A DNA stretch of 37,030 nucleotides. Origin: Sandaracinaceae bacterium. Lineage in GTDB: Bacteria; Myxococcota_A; Polyangia; Polyangiales; Sandaracinaceae. Both the position numbers and the translations under genes were made by a program. Below, one piece after another: positions 24,917 through 36,334 of the stretch. The number at the start of each line of letters is the position of its first letter. Within the stretch, counting starts at the first letter, position 1. The stretch is from the NCBI GenBank assembly GCA_044220955.1, contig JBGAQA010000066.1, positions 1-37,030 on the forward strand. The letters are read 5' to 3'. The notes under the pieces are model-generated. The model was not told the origin of the DNA and did not search any database. It saw only the letters and a list, made by a program, of their open reading frames with translations.

Positions 24917-25573
24917 TCACGCGAGTCGCGTGATCCGGCTCCACGCCTCGTCGACGACCGGCCCGTACTCGGGGGAGTCCGGGACCGCGTAGCGCGCGTA
25001 GGCGTAGATCTTCCCGAGCACCTTCGTGTCGTTCGAGCGGGCGATCGCCGCGCGCAGGCTGGCCGGATCCGGCTCGGTGCCGGCGGCCCGGAGCGCCGGC
25101 TCGAGCATCGCGCAGAACCCCTTGCGACCGAGCATTCCGTCGCGCCTCGGATCGAGGTACGCGCCCGTCGCCTCGCCGATGCAGACGAGCTTCTTCTTCT
25201 CGGTGGCGCTCACCCGACCCGGAAGGAACGTCAGCGCCCACAGCGCGGCGCAAGCGTAGGTGGCCAGGCACTCCCAGCGCGTCCAGCTCGAGAAGTCGAC
25301 CTGCTGTCCCCACATGAGCACGAAGGGCATCGCGAAGGTCGCGAGCGCCAGCCAGACGCGCGCATAGCCCAGCAGCACGCTCGAGCCGACCAGCGGCAGG
25401 TCACGCCCCTTGTACTGGACGCGCGTGCCGCCGGGGACGCGGCTGATCTGCATCGAGTGGACGTACATCGAGCGGATCGGGACGAGCGGCACGCCGAGGC
25501 CGAGGAACACCGTGGCCACGAAGTGGCCCTCCACCTCGTCGACCGTTCCCAGCACCGACTCCGTCGACGACAT
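24917..25573 (-). CDS. Membrane hypothetical protein
   Basis: 218-aa ORF, ATVFLGLGVPLVPIRS plus two TM segments; upstream TG-x-TATCCT and GGAG. Confidence 0.75.
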   Translation of the reverse strand: MSSTESVLGTVDEVEGHFVATVFLGLGVPLVPIRSMYVHSMQISRVPGGTRVQYKGRDLPLVGSSVLLGYARVWLALATFAMPFVLMWGQQVDFSSWTRWECLATYACAALWALTFLPGRVSATEKKKLVCIGEATGAYLDPRRDGMLGRKGFCAMLEPALRAAGTEPDPASLRAAIARSNDTKVLGKIYAYARYAVPDSPEYGPVVDEAWSRITRLA

Positions 25574-25625: not shown

Positions 25626-26303
25626 TCACGGGCGCCAGTGCTCGACGCGTCGCTCGAGGGCCAGCAGCGCGCGGGCCGGGACCAGACCGAGCAGGCCGGT
25701 GACGATCAGCACCGCCCAGAGACCCGGCGTGTCGTACGCGATCTGCGCGGCGACGGCGCGAGCCCCGAGCCCCGCGTCGGCGCCGATGACCATGTCGGTG
25801 ACGACCGAGACGACGAGGCCCAGCGCCAGGGCCTGGCGCAGACCGACGAGCAAGGGCGGCACGAGCTCGCGGCTGCGCACGAACCGGAACAGCTGCAGGC
25901 GCGAGGCGCCCATCGCGGCGAGCGCCCGCTCTCGCTCGCCGGCGGGCCGCGCGAGGGCCGCGCTCACGTGGAGCGAGACGGTGAGCGCCGCCGCCCACGC
26001 GACCGCGAGCACCCGGGCGAGCTCGCCGTAGCCGAACGCGAAGCAGAGCAAGGGCACCACGAGCAGCGGCGGGATGGCGCGGAAGAAGTCGAGCGGCGCC
26101 TCGACCGCGTCGCGCGAGCGGGAGGCGGGCACGGCGAGCGCGATGCCCAGCAGAGCGCCGCCGGCGAGGCCGAGCGCCGTGCGGCGGATGGTGGCGGCCA
26201 GGTCCGCGCCGAGCGTGCCGTCGCCGATGGCCGTGGCGAGCGCGCGCAGGATCGCGAGCGGCCCGGCGAGCGCGCGGTGCTGCACGAGGCCTTGGTCGAG
26301 CAC
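25626..26303 (-). CDS. ABC transporter permease, NitT/TauT (SsuC/TauC-like)
   Basis: DFFRAIPP, EAA-like loop ALAAMGASRLQLFRFV, DMVIGADAGLG; the N-terminal TM appears to be missing. Confidence 0.88.
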   Translation of the reverse strand: MLDQGLVQHRALAGPLAILRALATAIGDGTLGADLAATIRRTALGLAGGALLGIALAVPASRSRDAVEAPLDFFRAIPPLLVVPLLCFAFGYGELARVLAVAWAAALTVSLHVSAALARPAGERERALAAMGASRLQLFRFVRSRELVPPLLVGLRQALALGLVVSVVTDMVIGADAGLGARAVAAQIAYDTPGLWAVLIVTGLLGLVPARALLALERRVEHWRP

Positions 26304-26343
26304 CAGCGGCGCGCGGGGCCGCCCCCGGGCCGGCGAGCCGCCG

Positions 26344-27129
26344 TCACGTGCCGACCGCCCGGAGGATCGGGGCCGCGCCGAGCGCCCCGCGCCGCGAGAG
26401 ATCGCCGGCGTCGCGCGCGACGTCCTCGAGCGCGCGCAGGACCTCGCTCGCGTCTCCGTGCTCGATCGCGACGTCGGCGCGGACCGTCCCCGGCCGACCG
26501 CCGAGCACGATCGCGCGGGTCGCGAGGGCGGCGGCGTCGGCGAGATCGTGGGTGACGAAGAGCAGCGTCGTCTCCGGCGCGCGCGCGCAGCCCCGCGCGA
26601 TGGCCTCGCGCGTCCGGAGCCGCGCGACGGGGTCGATCGCCGACAGAGGCTCGTCCAGCACGATCAGCCGTGGCGCTCCGACCCACGCGCGCATCAGCCC
26701 GACGAGCTGGCGCTCGCCGCCCGAGAGCGCGCGGGGCGCGCGGGTCGGGTCGATCCGAGCGCCTGGATCGAGCCAGGCCCGCACGTCGTCGAACGCGCGC
26801 GCGCGCGCCGCCGCCGGCACACCGCGCAGGCGCAGCGGGAGCTCGACGTTGTCGCGCACCGAGAGCCACGGCAGGAGGCTGGCGTCGGGGTCCTGGCCCA
26901 CGAAGCCGATCGAGCTCGCGGGAGGAGCGGCGCCGAGGACGCGGACCGACCCTTCCGCGGAGAGCAAGCCGAGCACGACGTCGAGGAGCGTGGACTTCCC
27001 GGCCCCGTTTCCGCCGAGCAGCGCGACGCGCTCTCCGGTCGCGATCCGCAGCGTGATCCCGTCGAGCACGAGGCGGCCGTCGCGCCACGCACGGACCGAC
27101 TCGAGCGCGATGGCAGGGACGGCGCTCAT
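26344..27129 (-). CDS. ABC transporter ATP-binding protein, NitT/TauT type
   Basis: GGNGAGKST, LLPWLSVRDNV, LSGGERQ, LIVLDEP, FVTHD; ATG 27129 overlaps the SBP stop (ATGA). Confidence 0.93.
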   Translation of the reverse strand: MSAVPAIALESVRAWRDGRLVLDGITLRIATGERVALLGGNGAGKSTLLDVVLGLLSAEGSVRVLGAAPPASSIGFVGQDPDASLLPWLSVRDNVELPLRLRGVPAAARARAFDDVRAWLDPGARIDPTRAPRALSGGERQLVGLMRAWVGAPRLIVLDEPLSAIDPVARLRTREAIARGCARAPETTLLFVTHDLADAAALATRAIVLGGRPGTVRADVAIEHGDASEVLRALEDVARDAGDLSRRGALGAAPILRAVGT

Positions 27130-28118
27130 GGCGTCGCGCCCGCGAGCGACCAGCCCGAGACGTCGGGGACGGAGGCCGCGAGGCCGAGCTCGCCGATGCG
27201 ACGCGTCTCGGCCGAGAGTCGCTCCGAGGTGAGCTCCGAGCTCGTCAGGTACGAGGCGGGTGGGTAGAGGCGCACCTGGGGACGCTCGGGCTCGCGCACG
27301 AACGGGAGCATCGCGTCCGCCGCCGTGGACGGGTCCCGGGCGATCTCGGCGATCGCCTCGTCGAGCGAAGCCAGGAGCGCCGCCACGTCCGCCGGACGCG
27401 CGCGCGCGACGTCCTCGGTCACCAGGAAGGTACCGAAGACCTGTGGGCCCCCGAGCGCGTCCGGGACCGGGGCGAGCGGACCGAGGCGCTCGCCGGCGCC
27501 GCTCGCGACGGCGGCCGTGGCCATGGGGTCGCCCGTGAAGAGCGCGTCGACGTTGCCCTCGGCGAGGCTCGACACCTGCTGCGGTGGCGCGATCGGCACC
27601 ACCGTGACCTCCCCGGGGTCCACGCCCGCGTGCCGGAGCACGAGGTCCAGCCAGGCGGTGTACGCGAGCGTCGGGAGCACGCCGACGCGATGGCCCCGGA
27701 GATCGGCGACGGACTCGATCGGCGGACCGCCCGCGCGGCGGAGCAGCGCGCTGACGGGGTGGGCCTGATCCTCGACCATGCCCGTCGCGATGCGCACGCC
27801 CTGGTGCGCCTGGCCCGCGACGGTCATCACGATGGGCAGCGCGGCGTAGCCGCCCGCGTCGATCCGGCCGTCGACCAGCTCCTCGACGAGGGGCTGTGCG
27901 GTGTCGTAGCGGCGCAGGTCCACCCGCAGGCCGTGGCGCGCGAAGATGCCGCGCTGGTCCGCGACGAAGATCGGCAGGCTGATGCGCAGCGCGCTGTACC
28001 CGACGACGAGCGTGGCGGGCGGGGCCGTGCTCGCGGGCGCCGGCGGCTCCTCGCACGCGGCCAGGGACCACGACGTGATGACGAGGGCGATCGGGAGCGC
28101 GAGCCGGGTGCGGTTCAT
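27126..28118 (-). CDS. ABC substrate-binding lipoprotein (SsuA/NMT1/THI5-like)
   Basis: WSLAA-C lipobox; LPIFVADQRGIFARHGL, LVDGRIDAG, IESVADLRGHRVGV, GNVDA; ATG 28118 overlaps the upstream stop (ATGA). Confidence 0.9.
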   Translation of the reverse strand: MNRTRLALPIALVITSWSLAACEEPPAPASTAPPATLVVGYSALRISLPIFVADQRGIFARHGLRVDLRRYDTAQPLVEELVDGRIDAGGYAALPIVMTVAGQAHQGVRIATGMVEDQAHPVSALLRRAGGPPIESVADLRGHRVGVLPTLAYTAWLDLVLRHAGVDPGEVTVVPIAPPQQVSSLAEGNVDALFTGDPMATAAVASGAGERLGPLAPVPDALGGPQVFGTFLVTEDVARARPADVAALLASLDEAIAEIARDPSTAADAMLPFVREPERPQVRLYPPASYLTSSELTSERLSAETRRIGELGLAASVPDVSGWSLAGATP

Positions 28119-29473
28119 GAGTGACCTCGTCGTTCGAGCCGAGCGACCTCGCACGCGAGCGTGCAGGCGTAGGGGCGGGCGCCCGTCTCGTGGGTGCCCG
28201 CGAGCGGGTCGATCGGGGGCAGTGGCATGGGGCGCGACGCGCGCGCGGCCTCCAGCTCTCGGTGGGCCTCGCGCAGCGCACCCGCGACGCGCATCATCAG
28301 CCGGCTCTCTCTGGCCGCCGCGCCGTCGTGGCTGACCTCGAGGGCCAGGAAAGGCATCGCGTCGGCGCCCTGCGCGAGCGCCACGGGCACGATCGCGTCG
28401 GCGAGCCCGCTGGACGGGATGCAGCCGAACGACTTGACGGAGATCACCGCGTGCGCGCGGCGCTCGGCGCGCGCACGGAGCGCCAGCGCGACCTCGACGT
28501 GACCGTAGCCGCCGCGCACGTCGCTGGGTAGCCACGGGCGCGCGAGCGCCGCGAGCGCGTCGAGGTCGGGGAGCTCGAGGCCCCCGAGCCCGGCGGCCGT
28601 GCAGGCCCGCGCGAGCGAATCGCGGATCTGCGCGTCGAGGGCGACCCACGCGTGGAGATCCGAGGTCGGCGCCCCTCCGCCCCACGTGGGCTGGCGCGCC
28701 TCCCAGGCGCGCAGCGCGACCCAGAGCGAGAGCGGCGGTACCTCGATCTCGACGCCGGCGCGCGCGAGCACCCGCGGCAGGTGAAGCTGGGGCGCGCCGT
28801 CGACGTGGAGCGACCACGGCTCGCCGATCAGCACGACGCGCCCGAGCGGGGAGGGCGTCTGGCGCGGGAGCGCGGCGTGGAACGCGCGCACGGAGGCGAG
28901 CGCCTCGATCGGGGCCTCGCCCGTCTCGATGCGCCGGAGCATCGAGTCGAGCGCCTGCGCGGCCGCGCTCTCGAGGGCGTCCACGTCCTCGACGTGGGGT
29001 GCCAGCCGGCGCACGACCTCCGCGAGCGCGTCACCGGCGGCGATCGCGTCGAGCAGCGCGCGCGTACCCTCGGCGCCGACGAGGCCGTGGAGCGCGGTCG
29101 GGTCCTGGCCGACGACGAGCGTCCGGACGCGCGAGCAGCCCTCGGCGTCGAGCGCGCGACGCCAGGCGGGGGCGAAGAGCGCGAAGCGACAGGGTCCGCA
29201 GGTCGTCACGCCCAGCGCGGTCGCCGCCGTCCGAGGCTCGAGGGCGCTGGCGGTCCGCAGGAGCGCGCCCGTGGTGTAGAGCAGCGGCGCGCAGGGGTTG
29301 CGCGCGAGACGCGCGCGGCCTCGCTCGTACGCGTCCCGGTCCATCGGCCCCAGCGTGCGGGCGTCGAGCCCGCGCGCGCGCAGGGTCGCTGCGAGCAGCG
29401 CGTCGTAGGGCGCGCCGAGGCCGCCGACGAGGAAGAGGCCGCGGCCCGACGCCGCTCCGAGCAGCGCGCTCAC
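28115..29473 (-). CDS. PlsR-like 2-hydroxyacyl-CoA dehydratase-type partner subunit
   Basis: NPCAPLLYTTG, CGPCRF, VVLIGE, VKSFGCIPS, FLALEV; GTG 29473 overlaps the upstream stop (GTGA). Confidence 0.75.
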   Translation of the reverse strand: MSALLGAASGRGLFLVGGLGAPYDALLAATLRARGLDARTLGPMDRDAYERGRARLARNPCAPLLYTTGALLRTASALEPRTAATALGVTTCGPCRFALFAPAWRRALDAEGCSRVRTLVVGQDPTALHGLVGAEGTRALLDAIAAGDALAEVVRRLAPHVEDVDALESAAAQALDSMLRRIETGEAPIEALASVRAFHAALPRQTPSPLGRVVLIGEPWSLHVDGAPQLHLPRVLARAGVEIEVPPLSLWVALRAWEARQPTWGGGAPTSDLHAWVALDAQIRDSLARACTAAGLGGLELPDLDALAALARPWLPSDVRGGYGHVEVALALRARAERRAHAVISVKSFGCIPSSGLADAIVPVALAQGADAMPFLALEVSHDGAAARESRLMMRVAGALREAHRELEAARASRPMPLPPIDPLAGTHETGARPYACTLACEVARLERRGHS

Positions 29474-32400
29474 GCGTGCACCTCGAGCCCACGCGCCGGC
29501 CGCGCGAGCGTGCCCTCGTGCCGTCTGACGGCGTCGGCGAACGTCGCGATCCGCAGCCCGAGCGTGATGCCGGGGCTGTGCTCGTCCACGTCGTGCAAGC
29601 GCAGGACGGGCTTGTCGTCGCCGAGCACGTCGTCGACGATCCCCTGCACCGACGCGTCCTGGCCGCAGCGGAAGCTCGAGAGGTCGACGGCGACGAGGTG
29701 CGGGTCGCGCGCGATGCGGCGAGCCGCCCACACGCGCTCGGCGCAGCCCGAGTTGGTGGCGCCGGGCATCGTCGCCGACAGATCGAGGAGCGCGGGCTCG
29801 CCGAGGGGGAGCGAGGCGATGCCGAGCACCGGGATACCGCGCGCCGCGAGCTCGGTGGAGACGCCGTGCTGCACGCCCGGGTCGGCGTGATAGGGCCGGG
29901 CGAGGATCACCGCGACGGCGCGCCCGGCGGCGCGGGCGCGCGCGAGCACCCACTCGCCACGCGCGCGCAGGCGCGCCGCGTGCGTCGCCTGCGCGCGGAG
30001 CCCGTGCTCCACGGCCACACGGTTCGCGGCGGCGTCGAGCTCCAGCAGCTCGCCGAGCCCCGCGAGCAGCTGCGCTTCGAGCGTGGCGCGGTCGGTCATG
30101 CAGAGCGACGGCGTCAGGGCGCGGACGCCGCGCGCGGCGAGCTCGTCCCCGTCGCGTCGCAGCGAGGCGAGCGCCGCGTGCCCGCAGCCGGCCACGATGG
30201 GGCACGAGGCGGTGTCGGTGACGCCCCGCACGGGGATCGCCGCGTGCGTGAAGGCCGGCAGGAGCAACACCTCGATCGGCCTCGGGCTCAGCCGGAGCAG
30301 CCAGTCGACGTGGGCCGGGACGAGCTTGGCCGGGAAGCAGGGATCGTTGGCCGCGCGCGCGCCCTGCTGGAACAGCCGCGGCGAGGTCGTGGGCGAGAGC
30401 ACCAGGTGGGACTCGGGCACCCCCGCGGCGCGCAGGTAGTGCAGCAGGAACGGCGCGCATCGATAGAGCGCCATGACGCGCGGGATGCCGATGACCCTCG
30501 GGCGCGCGAGGCGGCGGGCGGGCGAAGGGAGCATCGGGACGAAGAGGCGCCGGGCCTCCTCGGCGAGCAGGTCGACTGCATGCGAGCGCGAGCGCGCGCC
30601 CGTGTGCCCCACGTCGGCGCCGCGCTCGCATGCGTTGCCCGCGACGAGCGTGCGTCTCGTCCCGCGCTCGGACTCGATGTGCACCAGCGCCCGCGCGCAG
30701 CCCACCTCGCACCGATCGCAGCGGGTCCCGTCACCGCTCTCGACGCGCACCCTCTGCGCGCGCATCGCCACGAGATCGCGCGAGCTCGCCGCCCGGCGGC
30801 CCGGTCGATCACGCGCCTCGAGCGCCGCACCGATCGCGCCGCAGAGCTCGGGGCGCGGGTGCACGGCCACCCGGGCGCCGGGCACGTGGTCCTCGAGGTA
30901 GCGGAGGTGGGCGAGCGCCGCCGCCGCGTTGCGATGGACCCCTCCGGTGAGCAGGAACGAGCGACCGAGCCGGGCAGGCGCCTCGCCCACGACCATCTCC
31001 CACACGTTGCGCGGGAGCGCGCGCGCGAGCCCTGCGAGGATCTCGGCGGCGTCGAACCCGTCGCGCTGGAACGTGATGCGGTCGGTGTCGAGGAAGATGG
31101 CGCAGCCGACCGAGAACTCGGGGGAGCGGCTCGCCGAGAGCGCGCGCTCGGCGTAGTCGGCCATCGGCACGCCGAGCTCGGCCGCCGCCGTCGCGAGGAA
31201 CGCCCCATGCCCCGCCGAGCACTGCGAGGAGAGGTGGAAGCCGATCGTCCGCCCGTGGCGCAGACGCAGCACCTTCACGTCGGTGCCTCCCACGTCGACG
31301 ACGACCTCGACCCCCGGGAAGGCCTCCGCGGCGCCCCGCGCGTGAGCGAGCGTCTCGAGCACCTTCACGTCGGCCGAGAGCACCTCCGCGACGATCTCGG
31401 CGCCGTACCCCGTCACGCCCAGGCCGGCGATCGGCCTCTCGCTGTCGCCCAGGACCTCGGCGAGGCGCGCGCGCGCATCCGCGATCGGGTCGCCGCTCGA
31501 GATCCCGTACGACGCGGCGAGGGGCTCGCTGCCCCCGCTCCCCAAGAGGACCGCCTTGGTGCTCGTCGAGCCGGTGTCGAGGCCGACCCAGAGCCCATCG
31601 GCCATCCCGCGGATGCCGGGGGTCCACGGCGCCGTGAGCCGTGGACGCTCGTCGTCACGCGGCACGAGCCCCGGACCGACCCGTGTCGGGCCGAGCACGC
31701 CGTGCACCCTCGGCTGCGCGCGCCGCCCGGCGGCCGCGTGCATCGCCGCGCCGAGCGCCGCGAGCGTGTCGGCATGATCGGGCCGCACGACCTCGCCCGG
31801 AGCGATCCCGTGCTGCGCCCAGTGCCGCTCGAGCGCCTCCCGCCATGCCTGGACGAGGACGGGCAGGTGCTCGTGCGGCCCGCCGAGCAGCACGACCGGT
31901 GCGCGCAGCGCTCGCCCACGCGCGAGCACCGCGAGGTTCTGCACCACGATCGCGCGTGCGAGCGCCGCGATCGCGAGTCCCGGCGCGACCCCGCGCTGCA
32001 CGAGGTTCACCACGTCGGTCTCGGCGAAGACCCCGCACTTGGCCGCCACGCGCGCGTCGCCCTCGAGCCGGAGCCCACGGAGCGCCTCGGGCGTCATCCC
32101 GAGCCGCCGCGCGATGCGATCGATGGTGGCGCCGGTGCCCGCCGCGCAGCGATCGTTCATCTCCGCGTCGCCGCCCGTCGCGTCGAGCCAGACGATCTTG
32201 GCGTCCTGCCCGCCGAGCTCGACGACGGTCCGCGCACCCGGGACGAGCGCGCGCACCGCGTCCGTGAACGCGCCGATCTCGTGGACGGGGATGGCGCCGA
32301 GCGCGCTCGCGAGCGCGACACCAGCCGAGCCGGTGATGGCGACCGGTGCTCCCGGCAGGAGCTCGCGCGCGTGCTCGAGCAGCCCGCGCGCAGCGGCGGC

Positions 32401-32511
32401 CGGAGCGCCCCGATGCCGCTCGCAGAGCCGGAGCACCACGCTCGCGTCCGGGCCGAGCGCGACCACCTTGGCGGTCGTCGAGCCGAGGTCCAGACCGATG
32501 CCCGGCGACAC
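29470..32511 (-). CDS. PlsA-like fused double BadF/BadG/BcrA/BcrD activase + DUF2229-like domain protein
   Basis: GLDLGSTT/ELGGQDAK/MNDRCAAGTG/KCGVFAETD and GLDTGSTS/DVGGTDVK/SQCSAGHG/GCAIFLDTD; CDRCEVGC, GNACERG, IGIPR, CFPAKL, CPIV, RPYHADP, SFRCGQDA; GAGG before GTG 32511. Confidence 0.88.
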   Translation of the reverse strand: MSPGIGLDLGSTTAKVVALGPDASVVLRLCERHRGAPAAAARGLLEHARELLPGAPVAITGSAGVALASALGAIPVHEIGAFTDAVRALVPGARTVVELGGQDAKIVWLDATGGDAEMNDRCAAGTGATIDRIARRLGMTPEALRGLRLEGDARVAAKCGVFAETDVVNLVQRGVAPGLAIAALARAIVVQNLAVLARGRALRAPVVLLGGPHEHLPVLVQAWREALERHWAQHGIAPGEVVRPDHADTLAALGAAMHAAAGRRAQPRVHGVLGPTRVGPGLVPRDDERPRLTAPWTPGIRGMADGLWVGLDTGSTSTKAVLLGSGGSEPLAASYGISSGDPIADARARLAEVLGDSERPIAGLGVTGYGAEIVAEVLSADVKVLETLAHARGAAEAFPGVEVVVDVGGTDVKVLRLRHGRTIGFHLSSQCSAGHGAFLATAAAELGVPMADYAERALSASRSPEFSVGCAIFLDTDRITFQRDGFDAAEILAGLARALPRNVWEMVVGEAPARLGRSFLLTGGVHRNAAAALAHLRYLEDHVPGARVAVHPRPELCGAIGAALEARDRPGRRAASSRDLVAMRAQRVRVESGDGTRCDRCEVGCARALVHIESERGTRRTLVAGNACERGADVGHTGARSRSHAVDLLAEEARRLFVPMLPSPARRLARPRVIGIPRVMALYRCAPFLLHYLRAAGVPESHLVLSPTTSPRLFQQGARAANDPCFPAKLVPAHVDWLLRLSPRPIEVLLLPAFTHAAIPVRGVTDTASCPIVAGCGHAALASLRRDGDELAARGVRALTPSLCMTDRATLEAQLLAGLGELLELDAAANRVAVEHGLRAQATHAARLRARGEWVLARARAAGRAVAVILARPYHADPGVQHGVSTELAARGIPVLGIASLPLGEPALLDLSATMPGATNSGCAERVWAARRIARDPHLVAVDLSSFRCGQDASVQGIVDDVLGDDKPVLRLHDVDEHSPGITLGLRIATFADAVRRHEGTLARPARGLEVHA

Positions 32512-32590
32512 GGCCGCCTCAATCCTCACGACGGGATGAGAGCGGGCGCACGCGCATGCATGGGCTTGGGCGCGCCGCGGCCGGATCGGG

Positions 32591-32604
32591 TTGATCGCGC
32601 GCAA
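32591..32604. promoter_or_regulatory. FNR/CRP-family-like box (proximal, imperfect)
   Basis: TTGAT-CGCG-CGCAA versus the FNR consensus TTGAT-N4-ATCAA. Confidence 0.5.
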
Positions 32605-32635
32605 CTGCGGCCAGGGCCGAGCGGCCGCCGGCGCC

Positions 32636-32649
32636 TTGACGCGGGTCAA
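32636..32649. promoter_or_regulatory. FNR/CRP-family-like box (distal, symmetric half-sites)
   Basis: TTGAC-GCGG-GTCAA. Confidence 0.6.
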
Positions 32650-32686: not shown

Positions 32687-35584
32687 ATGCGCAAGCTCAC
32701 CCTGCGTGCCCTGGCCTGCGCCCTCGTCCTCGGCGCGTGCGCGCTCTCCGAGACGCGCGAGGAGTCCCCTGCGCCCCGCAGCGCTCTCTTGCTCGAGCTC
32801 GAGCAGACCTTCCCCGCGACGCAGCGCTGGTTCGGCATGGTCGCCGACCTCGAGCTCGATACGAGCGCTGGCGAGATCGTGCCCCGCTACGACACGCTCC
32901 ACTCGCCGCTGGTCCTCGCGCGCGACGGCGGCGGGCAGTCGATCGAGGCGCGCCTGCCCGACCACGCGCGCGGTCCGCACACCGTGGCGGTCCACGGGGC
33001 TCCTGGGCTCTGGGTACGTACCCGCGAGCAGGGGATCGCGGACGTCGAGGCCAGGATCGAGTCCGGCGTCGTCGTGTACGCCGGCGCGATCGCTGGTGGC
33101 GGTGACCTGCTCTACAAGCTGACGCCCACGCACGTCGACGAGTACGTCTACCTACGCACCCCGCCCGAGACGCTCACCCGCACCTTCGTCGTCGAGACTG
33201 GCCCTGCGGTCGCGGCTCTTCGCCCGGGGGGCGCTCACCTCGAGGTGCTCGACGGCGAGGGCACCGCGCGGCTGCGCCTCGGGGCCCCGCTCGCACGCGC
33301 GGCTGACGGGACGCGCCGGCGGGGCACGCTGCGAGTCGACGGCGATCGACTGGTGCTCGAGATCGATCTGCGCGGGCTCGCGGCGCCGATCCTGATCGAT
33401 CCGGACTGGTCGACCACGGGCACCATGACGGTCGGCCACTGGGCCGACACCGCGTGGCGCATGAGCGACGGCCGCGTGATGGCCGTCGCCGGCTGTGCCC
33501 TCTCCGGGTGTCCGTCGACCTTCGCGCGCTCTGCCTGCGGACAGGTGCTGGCCGACACGGAGGTCTGGACGGAGGCGAGCGGCCTCTGGTCGGCGGGCCC
33601 GCCGCTCGCGACCGCGCGGTTCTCGTTCGGCGGCGTGTCCATCGGCAGCGGCGACTACCTGGTCGCGGGCGGCTGCACCACGACGGGCTGTGACGCGACG
33701 ACCGCCTCCGCCGAGGTGTATCGAGCGGCGGCAGGCGGGTGGCAGACGGTGGGCGCCTTGCCGCACCCGGTCGCGAACGTGATGGCCGCGGCCCTGCCCG
33801 GCGGGGACGCCCTGGTCGCTGGAGGGTGCGACGAGTCCGGGTGCGTCGCGGACGCGCAGCGCTTCGGGGCGGCGTCCGGCGTCTGGGCGTCCGTCGGGCC
33901 GCTCGCGGCGCCTCGCGGCTTCGCCTCCGCGACGGCACTACCCGATGGGCGCGTGCTCGTGGTCGGCGGCTGTGCCGACCCGGGGTGTGCGAGCGTCCTG
34001 TCGACCGCCGAGCTCTACGATCCGAGCACCGGCCTCTGGTCGCCCGCGGGCACGATGGCGGAGCCCCGGGCGGGTCACACGGCGAGCGCGCTCGGCGACG
34101 GATCGGTGCTCGTGCTCGGCGGGTGCGCCGACGCGGCGTGCATGTTCATCCTGCCGACGGTGGAGATCTGGAGCGACGCCGGCGGCGGCTCCTTCTCGCC
34201 CGGACCGACGATGCTCGGCGCGCGCCACAACCACACGGCGACGACGCTCGACGGCGGCGAGCTCCTGGTCGCCGGCGGCGGTAACGGTGCCGCCGCTTCC
34301 CTGCCGAGCGCGATGGTCTACCTGCCGGGGGAGGCGCGCTGGGTGGAGCTCGACGCGATGAACATGGACCGCGCGTACCACGTCGCCGTCACGCTGAGCT
34401 CTGGACGCGTGCTGCTCGGCGGTGGCTGCAACCCCACGACCTGCATGCCCTGGGCCGAGGTCTACGACCCGGCGACGCTGCCCTTCCACGTCGTCGATGG
34501 CGGTGTGCCGCCGATCGACGCCGGGCTGGACGCGAGCTCCGACTCGGACGCGGGAGACGCGGCGGTGTTCCGGGCCGAGGCGTCCCACCCCGCCGCGTAT
34601 CGCACGGGCGCATCGCGCTGCGCGACGAACACGGCGCAGCAGCTGCCCTGCCCCGTGGAGGGCTATCCGCGCCAGGACGCCGACTACGTCCCCGACGCGA
34701 GATCGCTGACGCTCTCGACGGAGGGCGACGTCACCGACGCCAACACGGGCCTGAGCTGGCAGGCGGGCGACGACGGTCGCACGTACGATCTGGGCGAGGC
34801 CAGGGCGCACTGCGCGACCCTCGCGCCCGCCGGGACCTGGCGCCTTCCGAGCGTCGTCGAGCTCGCGTCGATCGTCGACTACGGCGTGCACGTTCCCTCG
34901 CTCGACCCCCTGTTCGGGCCCGCGCCGTCGACGAACTACTGGAGCGCGACGCCCGTGACCTCGGGCGCGGAGCAGAACTGGACGGTCCGCTTCGACTTCG
35001 GCGAGGTGATCCCGATGGGCGCTTCGCACGCGCTCCCCGTGCGCTGCGTCCGCGGCGAGCCGATCTCGGGCACCGTCCCGGGCCACGTGCGCCGCGCGGG
35101 CGCGCTCGTGGCGACGGGGCCCACCGTGCGCGACGAGGCGACCGGTCTCGAGTGGCAGCGCACCGACGACGGCGTGCGGCGCGACTGGCGCGGCGCGCTC
35201 GAGCACTGCGCGCGCCTCGATCTCGCCGGGCACGCCGACTGGCACCTGCCGAACGTGGCGGAGCTGACCGGCATCGTGGAGTACGGTGGCGCACCGGCCG
35301 GCGCGGCCACGATCGACCGGGTGTTCACCGACGCACGGCCCGATCTCTACTGGACCTCGACCCCCAACGACGGGGCGCCGACGCTCTCGTGGAGCGTGAG
35401 CTTCAACCTCGGGGTCGTCGACGGTGTCACGACCTCGGGCATCACGTACGCCCGATGCGTCCGGCACATCGCACCGCCTCGCCCCGCGCCGAGCGGGTGC
35501 GGGTGCCGCGCCGGCGAACGCCGCGGCGGCGCGATCGCCGTCATCGCGCTCTCGCTCGTGCTCGCGGCCCTACGCCGGCGCTAA
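32687..35584 (+). CDS. Kelch beta-propeller + two DUF1566 (Lcl-like) domains + MYXO-CTERM-like tail
   Basis: LVLGA-C signal; seven kelch-like repeats (DGRVLVVGG…AELYDP..G.W); 2x TGL.WQ…HC..L…W.LP.V.EL…YW…RCVR; tail SGCGCR…LSLVLAALRRR. Confidence 0.9.
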   Translation: MRKLTLRALACALVLGACALSETREESPAPRSALLLELEQTFPATQRWFGMVADLELDTSAGEIVPRYDTLHSPLVLARDGGGQSIEARLPDHARGPHTVAVHGAPGLWVRTREQGIADVEARIESGVVVYAGAIAGGGDLLYKLTPTHVDEYVYLRTPPETLTRTFVVETGPAVAALRPGGAHLEVLDGEGTARLRLGAPLARAADGTRRRGTLRVDGDRLVLEIDLRGLAAPILIDPDWSTTGTMTVGHWADTAWRMSDGRVMAVAGCALSGCPSTFARSACGQVLADTEVWTEASGLWSAGPPLATARFSFGGVSIGSGDYLVAGGCTTTGCDATTASAEVYRAAAGGWQTVGALPHPVANVMAAALPGGDALVAGGCDESGCVADAQRFGAASGVWASVGPLAAPRGFASATALPDGRVLVVGGCADPGCASVLSTAELYDPSTGLWSPAGTMAEPRAGHTASALGDGSVLVLGGCADAACMFILPTVEIWSDAGGGSFSPGPTMLGARHNHTATTLDGGELLVAGGGNGAAASLPSAMVYLPGEARWVELDAMNMDRAYHVAVTLSSGRVLLGGGCNPTTCMPWAEVYDPATLPFHVVDGGVPPIDAGLDASSDSDAGDAAVFRAEASHPAAYRTGASRCATNTAQQLPCPVEGYPRQDADYVPDARSLTLSTEGDVTDANTGLSWQAGDDGRTYDLGEARAHCATLAPAGTWRLPSVVELASIVDYGVHVPSLDPLFGPAPSTNYWSATPVTSGAEQNWTVRFDFGEVIPMGASHALPVRCVRGEPISGTVPGHVRRAGALVATGPTVRDEATGLEWQRTDDGVRRDWRGALEHCARLDLAGHADWHLPNVAELTGIVEYGGAPAGAATIDRVFTDARPDLYWTSTPNDGAPTLSWSVSFNLGVVDGVTTSGITYARCVRHIAPPRPAPSGCGCRAGERRGGAIAVIALSLVLAALRRR

Positions 35585-35596
35585 CCAGGCGCCGCG

Positions 35597-36259
35597 TCAC
35601 GCCGGCGGCGCACCGGGCGCATTCTCGGGCCGCGCACGCTCGGCGTGCGGCGTCGCCATCGCGGCCTCGAAGACGGCGCGCACCCTGGGCATCGGCGAGA
35701 GGTCCGAGCCGAAGCGCCGCGCGCTCCACACCTGGGTCACGAGCAGGATGTCGGCGGCCGTGAGCTCCTCGCCGACGCAGAAGCGGCTCGGGCCGAGCTC
35801 GCTGCCGATCTGCTCGAGCATCTTCTCGAACGCGAGCAGGCCACGCTCGTTGAAGTAGCGCGACCACTCGGTGCGATCTTCGGGCTTCTCCCGTGCGCGG
35901 TTCACGCACGCGGGGCACTGCATGGGCTGGATGCCGGAGTTGACGTACTCCACCAGCTGCCGCGTCCGCGCTCGCCGCCAGGGGTCCGTGGGATACAGGC
36001 GCGGCTCGGGGTGGGTCTCCTCGAGGTACTCGAGAATGGCGACGGACTCGGCCAGGCAGGCGCCGCGCTCGGGCAGGAAGAGCGCCGGGACGCGACCGAG
36101 AGGGTTGCGCGCGAGGTGCTCCGCCGCGAGCTGCTCTCCAGCGCCGAGGTCGACCGTCACGGAGTCGAAGGCGATCCCCTTGTGCATCAGCGCCCAGCGC
36201 ACGCGCCACGAGGAGGATGAGCGCCAGAACTGATAGAGGATCGGCTTCGTGCTGGACAT
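35597..36259 (-). CDS. maiA: Maleylacetoacetate isomerase / zeta-class GST
   Basis: LYQFWRSSSSWRVRWAL, NPLGRVPAL, ESVAILEYLEE, SGIQP, TAADILL, ARPENAP. Confidence 0.88.
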   Translation of the reverse strand: MSSTKPILYQFWRSSSSWRVRWALMHKGIAFDSVTVDLGAGEQLAAEHLARNPLGRVPALFLPERGACLAESVAILEYLEETHPEPRLYPTDPWRRARTRQLVEYVNSGIQPMQCPACVNRAREKPEDRTEWSRYFNERGLLAFEKMLEQIGSELGPSRFCVGEELTAADILLVTQVWSARRFGSDLSPMPRVRAVFEAAMATPHAERARPENAPGAPPA

Positions 36260-36334
36260 CGCCCGAGCAGCGTGTGGCGCACGACGAGCCGCTGGTTGAT
36301 CGCTGACAAGCACGGCCCGTCGCGCGCGACGCGA

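Follow-up and report, generated by a model that had tools for sequence, protein, structure and literature searches.

What does a PlsA/PlsR-like radical reductase do when it is encoded together with an ABC importer? This question is raised by a window of 37,030 nt (the whole stretch of DNA analyzed) from a Sandaracinaceae bacterium (genome G000), in which five open reading frames (ORFs) on the minus strand (25626-32529) follow one another in the order g1 (PlsA-like), g2 (PlsR-like), g3 (solute-binding protein, SBP), g4 (ABC ATPase) and g5 (ABC permease). The first-pass annotation had described these five genes as one unit, and an ORF check found all of them, with the 4-nt overlaps at 29470-73, 28115-18 and 27126-29 in place; however, that annotation had overlooked a divergent kelch lipoprotein gene (32687-35584), which is the sixth member of the module. 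This six-gene variant of the PlsA/Ger family is, as the comparisons below show, real and conserved, and it seems to be as yet undescribed. PlsA-like genes in myxobacteria being already known, the new elements are its importer, its kelch partner and its operator. We propose that the six genes form an import-and-reduce unit that is induced in anoxia and acts on a soluble substrate, not on a membrane lipid, a reading to which we assign a probability of roughly 0.45.

Each part of the module was searched for in the same 401 genomes of the order (all counts include G000). The SBP family was detected in 21 of them, and module-clade g1 in 20, or 21 if G090 is counted, in which the gene is divided between two contigs (a floor, as this count comes from a stricter first look); 19 genomes are common to both sets. 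The N-terminal domain of the kelch protein was found in 26 genomes at E<=1e-15, 22 of which lie above a clear gap at 1e-25, and 20 are shared with the SBP set. Genomes with module-clade g1 are spread over 11 families and are rare in most of them (2/32 in the family of the window). Among 23 other module genomes, three of which belong to other orders of the class, g1 or g2 shares a stretch with the SBP gene in 16 and with the kelch gene in 18, in at least six different gene orders. SBP, kelch and permease genes occur in none of 22 sister-clade loci, and this importer is absent from all PlsA-type or sister-clade loci inspected. Single polypeptides that join kelch and SBP parts also exist (P0386 and P0389, from two clusters, one with 3 and one with 6 members), and P0389 is followed directly by the accession of a g1 homologue. 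The sets do not coincide fully: G228 and G306 (~600 contigs each) have g1 with no SBP found, G170 lacks a kelch match and G149 an SBP match. The SBP tree mirrors the two-branch split of g1 except in G083/L066, whose importer stems from a third SBP branch that also holds non-myxobacterial members, yet is located in the module, suggesting re-recruitment. The ABC linkage first noticed in a single locus is thus conserved in relatives, and the linkage of reductase clade, importer and kelch gene is real.

We then placed the reductase among its homologues. Matches to g2 are present in 196 of the 401 genomes (two unpublished), mostly in a 'long' clade of ~1210 amino acids, which also contains proteins of Brevibacillus, Rhodovulum, Sulfuritalea and spirochaetes, without conserved neighbors. 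Trees were built after leaving out 10 of 54 rows (fragments and near-duplicates), with subsets of 35 and 17 rows, and compositional bias was flagged in every tree; proxies from plasmid collections stand in for the experimentally tested PlsA and Ger enzymes. The module clade (support 99) is a longer-branched sister of the importer-free 'long' clade. A clade of its own unites the PlsA-type proxies (Listeria, Collinsella, Acetoanaerobium, Fusobacterium and Haliovirga), and a further one the fused myxobacterial proteins, including one encoded on contig C144 of G000. A topology that placed the module together with these PlsA-type proxies was rejected (approximately unbiased [AU] test, p = 1.3e-8; LG+G4, 17 rows). 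The membership in the PlsA/Ger family that the first-pass annotation had proposed therefore stands by architecture but not by grouping with the proxies: as far as sequences can tell, g1 is a PlsA/Ger-family protein, not a PlsA orthologue, and a fast-evolving sister of an importer-free clade. A sister-clade copy is kept in 9 of the 12 module genomes with full match lists, which would leave room for a new function.

These myxobacteria carry at least three BBD clades, one of them tied to the importer. The 'long' PlsA-like clade (L035-L050, L057-L062, L116) is present in about half of the order and also in aerobes such as Brevibacillus, and has no box of the kind described below. The fused protein on C144 (L163:6549-11222; 1450 amino acids) is encoded directly after genes for NnrS, a radical-SAM protein and a molybdoenzyme, and has orthologues in G035, G043 and G055; it was considered as the 'true' PlsA and rejected, since it belongs to yet another clade.

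Domain analysis bore out the PlsA/PlsR-like two-gene architecture (Act1-Act2-Red1 plus Red2) read from the window at first sight. Pfam found two PF01869 stretches and PF09989 in g1, in agreement with two fused ASKHA domains followed by a CxxCxxxC motif and a DUF2229-like region, and alignment showed all four activase cysteines (128, 165, 437, 476), the CxxCxxxC (604/607/611), C634 and the reductase cysteines (731, 776, 955) intact. The BBD core, which is the Ger criterion in PMC13159169, is thereby present in g1. The g2 protein has no match in Pfam or NCBIfam; nevertheless its sequence can be aligned along its length to PlsR, and likewise to the C-terminal half of PlsA-type fusion proteins, and C61, C95 and C351 are retained, so that [4Fe-4S] cysteines are conserved in all four domains of the window proteins. 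Neither g1 nor g2 matched PF06050 or reached the cut-offs of TIGR02259-02263. In the family f17, two or three cluster cysteines of g2 are lost in 5/5 aligned sequences; in the pairs tested, these g2 genes (L102, L107, L108, L110, L111) remain under purifying selection, with a ratio of nonsynonymous to synonymous substitutions (dN/dS) of about 0.3. Decay of the module was considered and rejected, as purifying selection was found in all module and importer gene pairs tested (dN/dS 0.15-0.37, by simple NG86 on best local matches, with a GC bias).

The first-pass annotation had left two options, a second, anoxic route to ether lipids or a PlsAR-family enzyme acting on an imported small molecule. 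The comparative data favor the latter and weaken the former. As a 'second route to plasmalogens' the first option is weak, because Ger homologues have already been published for Myxococcota (61/347 metagenome-assembled genomes [MAGs] in PMC11868695, a survey which notes that alkyl and alkenyl products are indistinguishable) and carF, which the first-pass annotation had named as a check, was not found in the family (PF10520 in 0/32 of its genomes, and in 4/61 relatives overall). A broader version, in which g1/g2 are an anoxia-induced ether-lipid synthase (ester to vinyl or alkyl ether, as in PlsA or Ger) within an anoxic membrane-remodeling program, for which a head group, precursor or cofactor is provided through the importer and the kelch protein, is the main rival reading and has real support, although we hold it to be less probable than import-and-reduce. 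It draws on the domain plan and cysteine set of PlsA/PlsR, on the BBD core found in Ger homologues of alkyl-ether producers (PMC13159169) and, as carF was not found, on a PlsA-type enzyme, which would then be the sole evident vinyl-ether route. In addition, a cluster encoding FAAL, SDR, acyl-CoA dehydrogenase and B12-radical-SAM proteins lies near the module in G032, G114, G118 and G130, a kelch gene of G149 follows the radical-SAM gene of that cluster, B12-radical-SAM and acyltransferase genes lie near the module in G083, and G000 itself holds the cluster, with boxes, on C234. Against this stand the failure of g1 to group with PlsA-type proteins, the sister copy kept in most module genomes, the absence of such an importer from the PlsA-type loci inspected, the persistence of linkage in f17 where g2 has lost its cluster cysteines, and the fact that G002, a genome without the module, also has the FAAL-cluster radical-SAM gene.

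The C234 cluster (L160, L194; ~10200-34000) comprises two FNR-type boxes and genes for an FNR-like regulator, CtaA, FAAL, an HpnA-like SDR, an acyl-CoA dehydrogenase, three B12-radical-SAM proteins, another radical-SAM protein and an acyltransferase, and may encode an anoxic lipid-modifying pathway, as its gene content suggests; in four or five genomes, parts of it are again found close to the module. A candidate elb-like group is found on C30 (L161:4863-10548), with HAD, two NAD_binding_4 (fatty-acyl-reductase) domains and an AMP-binding gene, the last cut by the contig end.

Control of the locus was the next point of the analysis. Both FNR-like boxes that the first-pass annotation had placed upstream are present, and they are conserved in the upstream regions of orthologues. 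The perfect box lies 38-51 bases 5' of the kelch ATG. Perfect TTGAY-N4-RTCAA sites number only 9 in the 7.5-Mb genome; apart from the window, one is found on C44, 5' of a kelch gene, one is surrounded by nnrS-like and FNR-like genes on C234, and others precede genes without an evident anaerobic role. Within 250 bases upstream of g1, a perfect box was found for 9/23 module genes vs 0/31 sister-clade genes (11 vs 2 with one mismatch), and upstream of kelch genes for 6/28 (10 with one mismatch), it being noted that in divergent loci one box may be counted for both genes. The TTGCG variant of the box also occurs upstream of kelch genes in G025, G032 and G083. A conserved operator of the CRP/FNR family is thus well supported by the sequence comparison, and its regulator may sense oxygen or nitric oxide. 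Five CRP/FNR-family genes score above the cut-off in G000; an FNR-like regulator has an N-terminal Cys and an ExxSR-like helix, and two others have such helices as well. A third TTG-N8-CAA site, TTGATCGCTGACAA, is located at 36296-36309 of the window, at the start of a glutathione S-transferase gene (35597-36313, minus strand).

The genome context is in keeping with this type of control. G000 encodes nirK, a nitric-oxide reductase and nnrS, and we infer from its gene content that the organism is a facultative anaerobe. MAGs of Sandaracinaceae and Polyangiales supplied the close homologues, one of which belongs to the family of the window (a contig of G025), and matching DNA was found in activated-sludge and bioreactor runs. 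On C99 (L162:4955-14438) of G000, the class I benzoyl-CoA reductase pathway is encoded in full (bcrCBAD, dch, had and oah above cut-offs) beside a nirK-like gene. In L054 and L067, module g1 directly follows bcrD.

The sixth gene encodes a protein with a signal containing an LGAC lipobox-like motif (identified by eye), a conserved N-terminal beta domain of ~200 amino acids, a propeller, two Lcl_C (DUF1566) domains and a MYXO-CTERM-like tail. Alignment revealed an invariant YKxTPTHxDEY motif in the N-terminal domain, whose Atlas matches belong to no family. In the model (predicted local distance difference test [pLDDT] 91.9), a fold search recognized a galactose-oxidase-like propeller as in AA5/GlxA copper radical oxidases, which are its nearest folds (Z 35.3, root-mean-square deviation 2.8, 336 aligned residues; Z range 32-35); the match to the GlxA model in NCBIfam is 39 of 800 bits. 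The Tyr-His of the last blade is kept (H 100%, Y 74%), whereas blade 1 lacks a Cys at the cross-link position and blade 2 has no fixed Tyr, these positions being taken from known motifs and not from superposition. A second, shorter and unlinked kelch paralogue of G000 (C44, L164:7230-9356) has its own perfect box and is followed by plastocyanin-like and GlpB-like genes. A His-rich lipoprotein of no known family (L107:3860-4702) is encoded beside the module in 7 genomes and was not found in G000.

These features raise the possibility of metal-chelate uptake, for instance of copper for NirK/NosZ, with the metal released or the chelator destroyed by ATP-driven reduction. We regard it as very improbable. 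The copper-radical-oxidase-like fold with its Tyr-His, the His-rich lipoprotein, the adjacent nosZ of G032 and the plastocyanin-like gene after the second kelch gene of G000 would fit it, whereas the missing cross-link Cys and the SBP fold class, which consists mainly of binders of organic compounds and oxyanions, would not. The RxxH motif is an ordinary feature of the kelch repeat, and we know of no precedent for a module that reduces metal chelates, both of which also count against a role in metal uptake.

Is there any indication of what is imported? The SBP, ATPase and permease are of the NMT1/SsuA type, each below every NCBIfam cut-off shown; the SBP reaches 83.8 of 163.5 bits with SsuA_fam and 58.6 of 304 with TauA. 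The SBP, with an LAAC lipobox-like motif (by eye), represents a discrete, unnamed family with the motifs LRISLP, TAQP, LPTxAY and TxDP. Its model (pLDDT 93.5) is about equally similar to SsuA, TauA, ThiY, NrtA, PqqT and an S. aureus protein (Z 24-26; Foldseek, VIA-align), so that the sulfonate/pyrimidine type named in the first-pass annotation is not singled out, and its Atlas matches are NMT1 clusters only. The invariant residues R45, S47, T73, Q75, E116, T150, Y153, W156 and D197 suggest a polar, probably anionic ligand. The sulfonate site of TauA is described as Gln30, Gly61, Gly79 and Thr132 (PMC6906117), and in a profile alignment Gly61 and Gly79 (in our numbering) face Ala in the SBP; as the contacts of these glycines are main-chain ones in the same source, Ala there leaves sulfonate binding possible. 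A specific form of the import-and-reduce proposal would make the PlsA-family enzyme an oxygen-free counterpart of SsuD/TauD, with a sulfonate or sulfate ester imported under FNR control by a kelch-assisted SsuABC-type pump and cleaved reductively by ATP-driven single electrons. It has slim support from the fold class of the SBP and from a family member in G287 (L115), located between arylsulfotransferase and luciferase-like monooxygenase genes, and we consider it a long shot.

We favor the general import-and-reduce reading because the tie to the importer has held through rearrangements and an exchange of the importer, the importer is missing from every PlsA-type or long-clade locus inspected, and a conserved paralogue is usually kept; linked as it is to an import pump, a surface propeller and a low-oxygen-type control sequence, the reductase would likely reduce an imported compound, probably a small polar molecule. 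In such a mechanism, an FNR/DNR-type activator would bind both boxes and, under anoxia, drive transcription in both directions. At the cell surface, the solute would be caught or released by the kelch lipoprotein and handed over to the SBP, and the ABC pump would deliver it to g1/g2. ATP hydrolysis in the ASKHA domains would push single low-potential electrons via [4Fe-4S] clusters to the DUF2229 domain and the PlsR-like domain (described in part in PMC8788747 and PMC12838417), where, going by what is known of the BCR/HAD/PlsA families, a ketyl-type radical anion would arise and a reduction or elimination follow. No gene for a CoA ligase or transferase is present in the module, so the substrate would have to be reducible in its imported form, for example a soluble oxo-ester, which has the type of bond that PlsA attacks, or a sulfonated or sulfated anion.

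Several observations weigh against the import of a soluble substrate for reduction. Ester-to-ether conversion on glycerolipids is the sole tested activity of the domain plan (PMC13159169, PMC12838417), lipid-type genes flank the module in several genomes, and no sister-clade copy was found in G000, G035 and G055. Aromatic residues are reduced from 11 to 5% in the reductase parts and from 7 to 4% in the activase; loss of a membrane-binding surface was rejected as evidence, since the fall is general, as strong in the activase as in the reductase parts, and so does not demonstrate lost membrane binding. The counts overstate significance, as related genomes are not independent. Other members of the SBP family lie in uninformative or unrelated gene settings, and G287 (100% complete) and G320 have kelch, SBP and ABC genes with only a sister-clade g1, so the importer can be independent of the reductase; in G043 and G418, the two lie in separate, unrelated neighborhoods. 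The last four genomes also speak for a reductase and an importer that are functionally separate and clustered only through a shared FNR/DNR regulon in anaerobic islands, which we consider unlikely. Neighboring genes for nosZ (G032), a type-II enzyme of the dimethyl sulfoxide (DMSO)-reductase family (G114, G118, G130) and benzoyl-CoA reductase (L054, L067) indeed point to general anaerobic islands. However, each of these neighbors occurs in few genomes only, whereas the six genes recur in ~20, g2 and the SBP gene overlap by 4 nt, and their linkage holds through at least six gene orders and the exchange of the importer.

The features of the locus are listed in Table 1, in which the permease calls for comment. 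The 40-nt gap that the first-pass annotation had reported before this gene is present as assembled but is probably an artifact. The first membrane helix present in related permeases is missing from the assembled one, an independent 11-kb contig (run X2, record 9) has 19 additional bases at 26307-26322, and both contigs of run X1, a possible source run, break at this spot. With these bases, a GTG at 26347 that overlaps the ATPase stop comes in frame (44+19 = 63 bases, on the basis of one contig); as 19 bases have probably been dropped from this assembly, all five genes likely overlap by 4 nt, and the run is likely translationally coupled throughout. The same independent contig covers the promoter stretch in one piece. 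The g1 protein is 1019 amino acids long from its GTG and 1013 in the database call; its start may be at 32511. A gene 3' of the permease (24917-25573, minus strand) encodes a membrane-type protein of 218 amino acids without a family match; it was considered as a member of the unit and rejected, having no match in any related locus.

Table 1. Features of the module and its control region in the window.
Feature	Position	Strand	Basis or remark
g1: PlsA-like protein, activase-activase-CxxCxxxC-DUF2229 (BBD)	29470-32529	-	Pfam, alignments, trees
g2: PlsR-like second reductase/dehydratase subunit, 452 amino acids, three cluster Cys	28115-29473	-	alignment
g3: NMT1/SsuA-fold solute-binding lipoprotein (SBP), 330 amino acids	27126-28118	-	Pfam, alignment, model
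g4: ABC ATPase, NitT/TauT type, 261 amino acids	26344-27129	-	Pfam, NCBIfam scan
g5: ABC permease; assembled ORF 25626-26303 (225 amino acids), likely start GTG 26347	25626-26347	-	Pfam, alignment, independent contig
Kelch beta-propeller lipoprotein, 965 amino acids, divergent, sixth module member	32687-35584	+	Pfam, model, co-occurrence
Perfect TTGAC-N4-GTCAA palindrome TTGACCCGCGTCAA	32636-32649		likely CRP/FNR-family (FNR/DNR-type) operator
Second box TTGCGCGCGATCAA, two mismatches, closer to g1	32591-32604		TTGCG-N4-ATCAA on minus strand
Likely assembly drop, 19 bases	26307-26322		independent contig comparison

What the module does bears on how the family is counted. Every tested PlsA/Ger member makes ether lipids, and genome surveys count any BBD homologue as ether-lipid potential (PMC13159169). 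If the module clade acts on a soluble substrate, the family would have a second chemistry and such surveys would overcount lipid producers; if it makes ether lipids, the importer would point to a hidden input of the pathway. Should the sulfonate reading be true, this would be the first non-lipid reaction of the family and a new route of anoxic organosulfur breakdown in sludge. Either way, the SBP offers through its ligand a direct handle on the substrate question, and the locus provides a conserved operator and the first partner for an unstudied family of myxobacterial kelch lipoproteins.

Nothing on this gene combination was found in the mostly non-subscription literature searched, and its closest known relatives each share only part of it. 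PlsA/PlsR of Clostridium perfringens, like the fused PlsA of Enterococcus faecalis and Listeria (plsA/plsR and the Listeria orthologues are treated in PMC9702350), share with g1/g2 the plan of two activases, a reductase and a second reductase and all Cys motifs, at 27-29% identity to the PlsA-type proxies. The module differs in its separate clade, in the linked importer and kelch lipoprotein, in an extra Cys of g2 (CGPC vs GGGC in 4/5 PlsA-type proxies), and in having FNR-type boxes where a TetR gene is described for E. faecalis (PMC9702350). Ger of the anaerobes Thermotoga maritima and Desulfatibacillum alkenivorans shares the BBD core; as far as the accessible text of PMC13159169 goes, the tested Gers are single long chains (BBDHDDH, BBDHDHDH) described without an importer, and its searched supplements contain no Ger row with a myxobacterial name, although the tree files (data S1/S2) could list some. 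HgdC-HgdAB and BcrABCD have in common with g1 an activase of the ASKHA type, each domain of which has two Cys (PDB 1hux, 4eht, 9gai; E 1e-27 to 3e-13), and by analogy the same radical chemistry may operate in the module. Unlike them, g1/g2 lack PF06050, score far under the Bcr equivalog cut-offs, which the true bcrCBAD on C99 of the same genome does reach, and are not accompanied by a CoA-activating gene in the module. Finally, SsuABC/TauABC (ssuEADCB, tauABCD) share the SBP fold class, the ABC type and the logic of an importer-plus-enzyme operon, the SBP being ~20% identical to SsuA/TauA, level with ThiY, NrtA and PqqT, and below the SsuA/TauA cut-offs; their partner enzyme is an oxygenase, whereas that of the module is an oxygen-sensitive iron-sulfur reductase.

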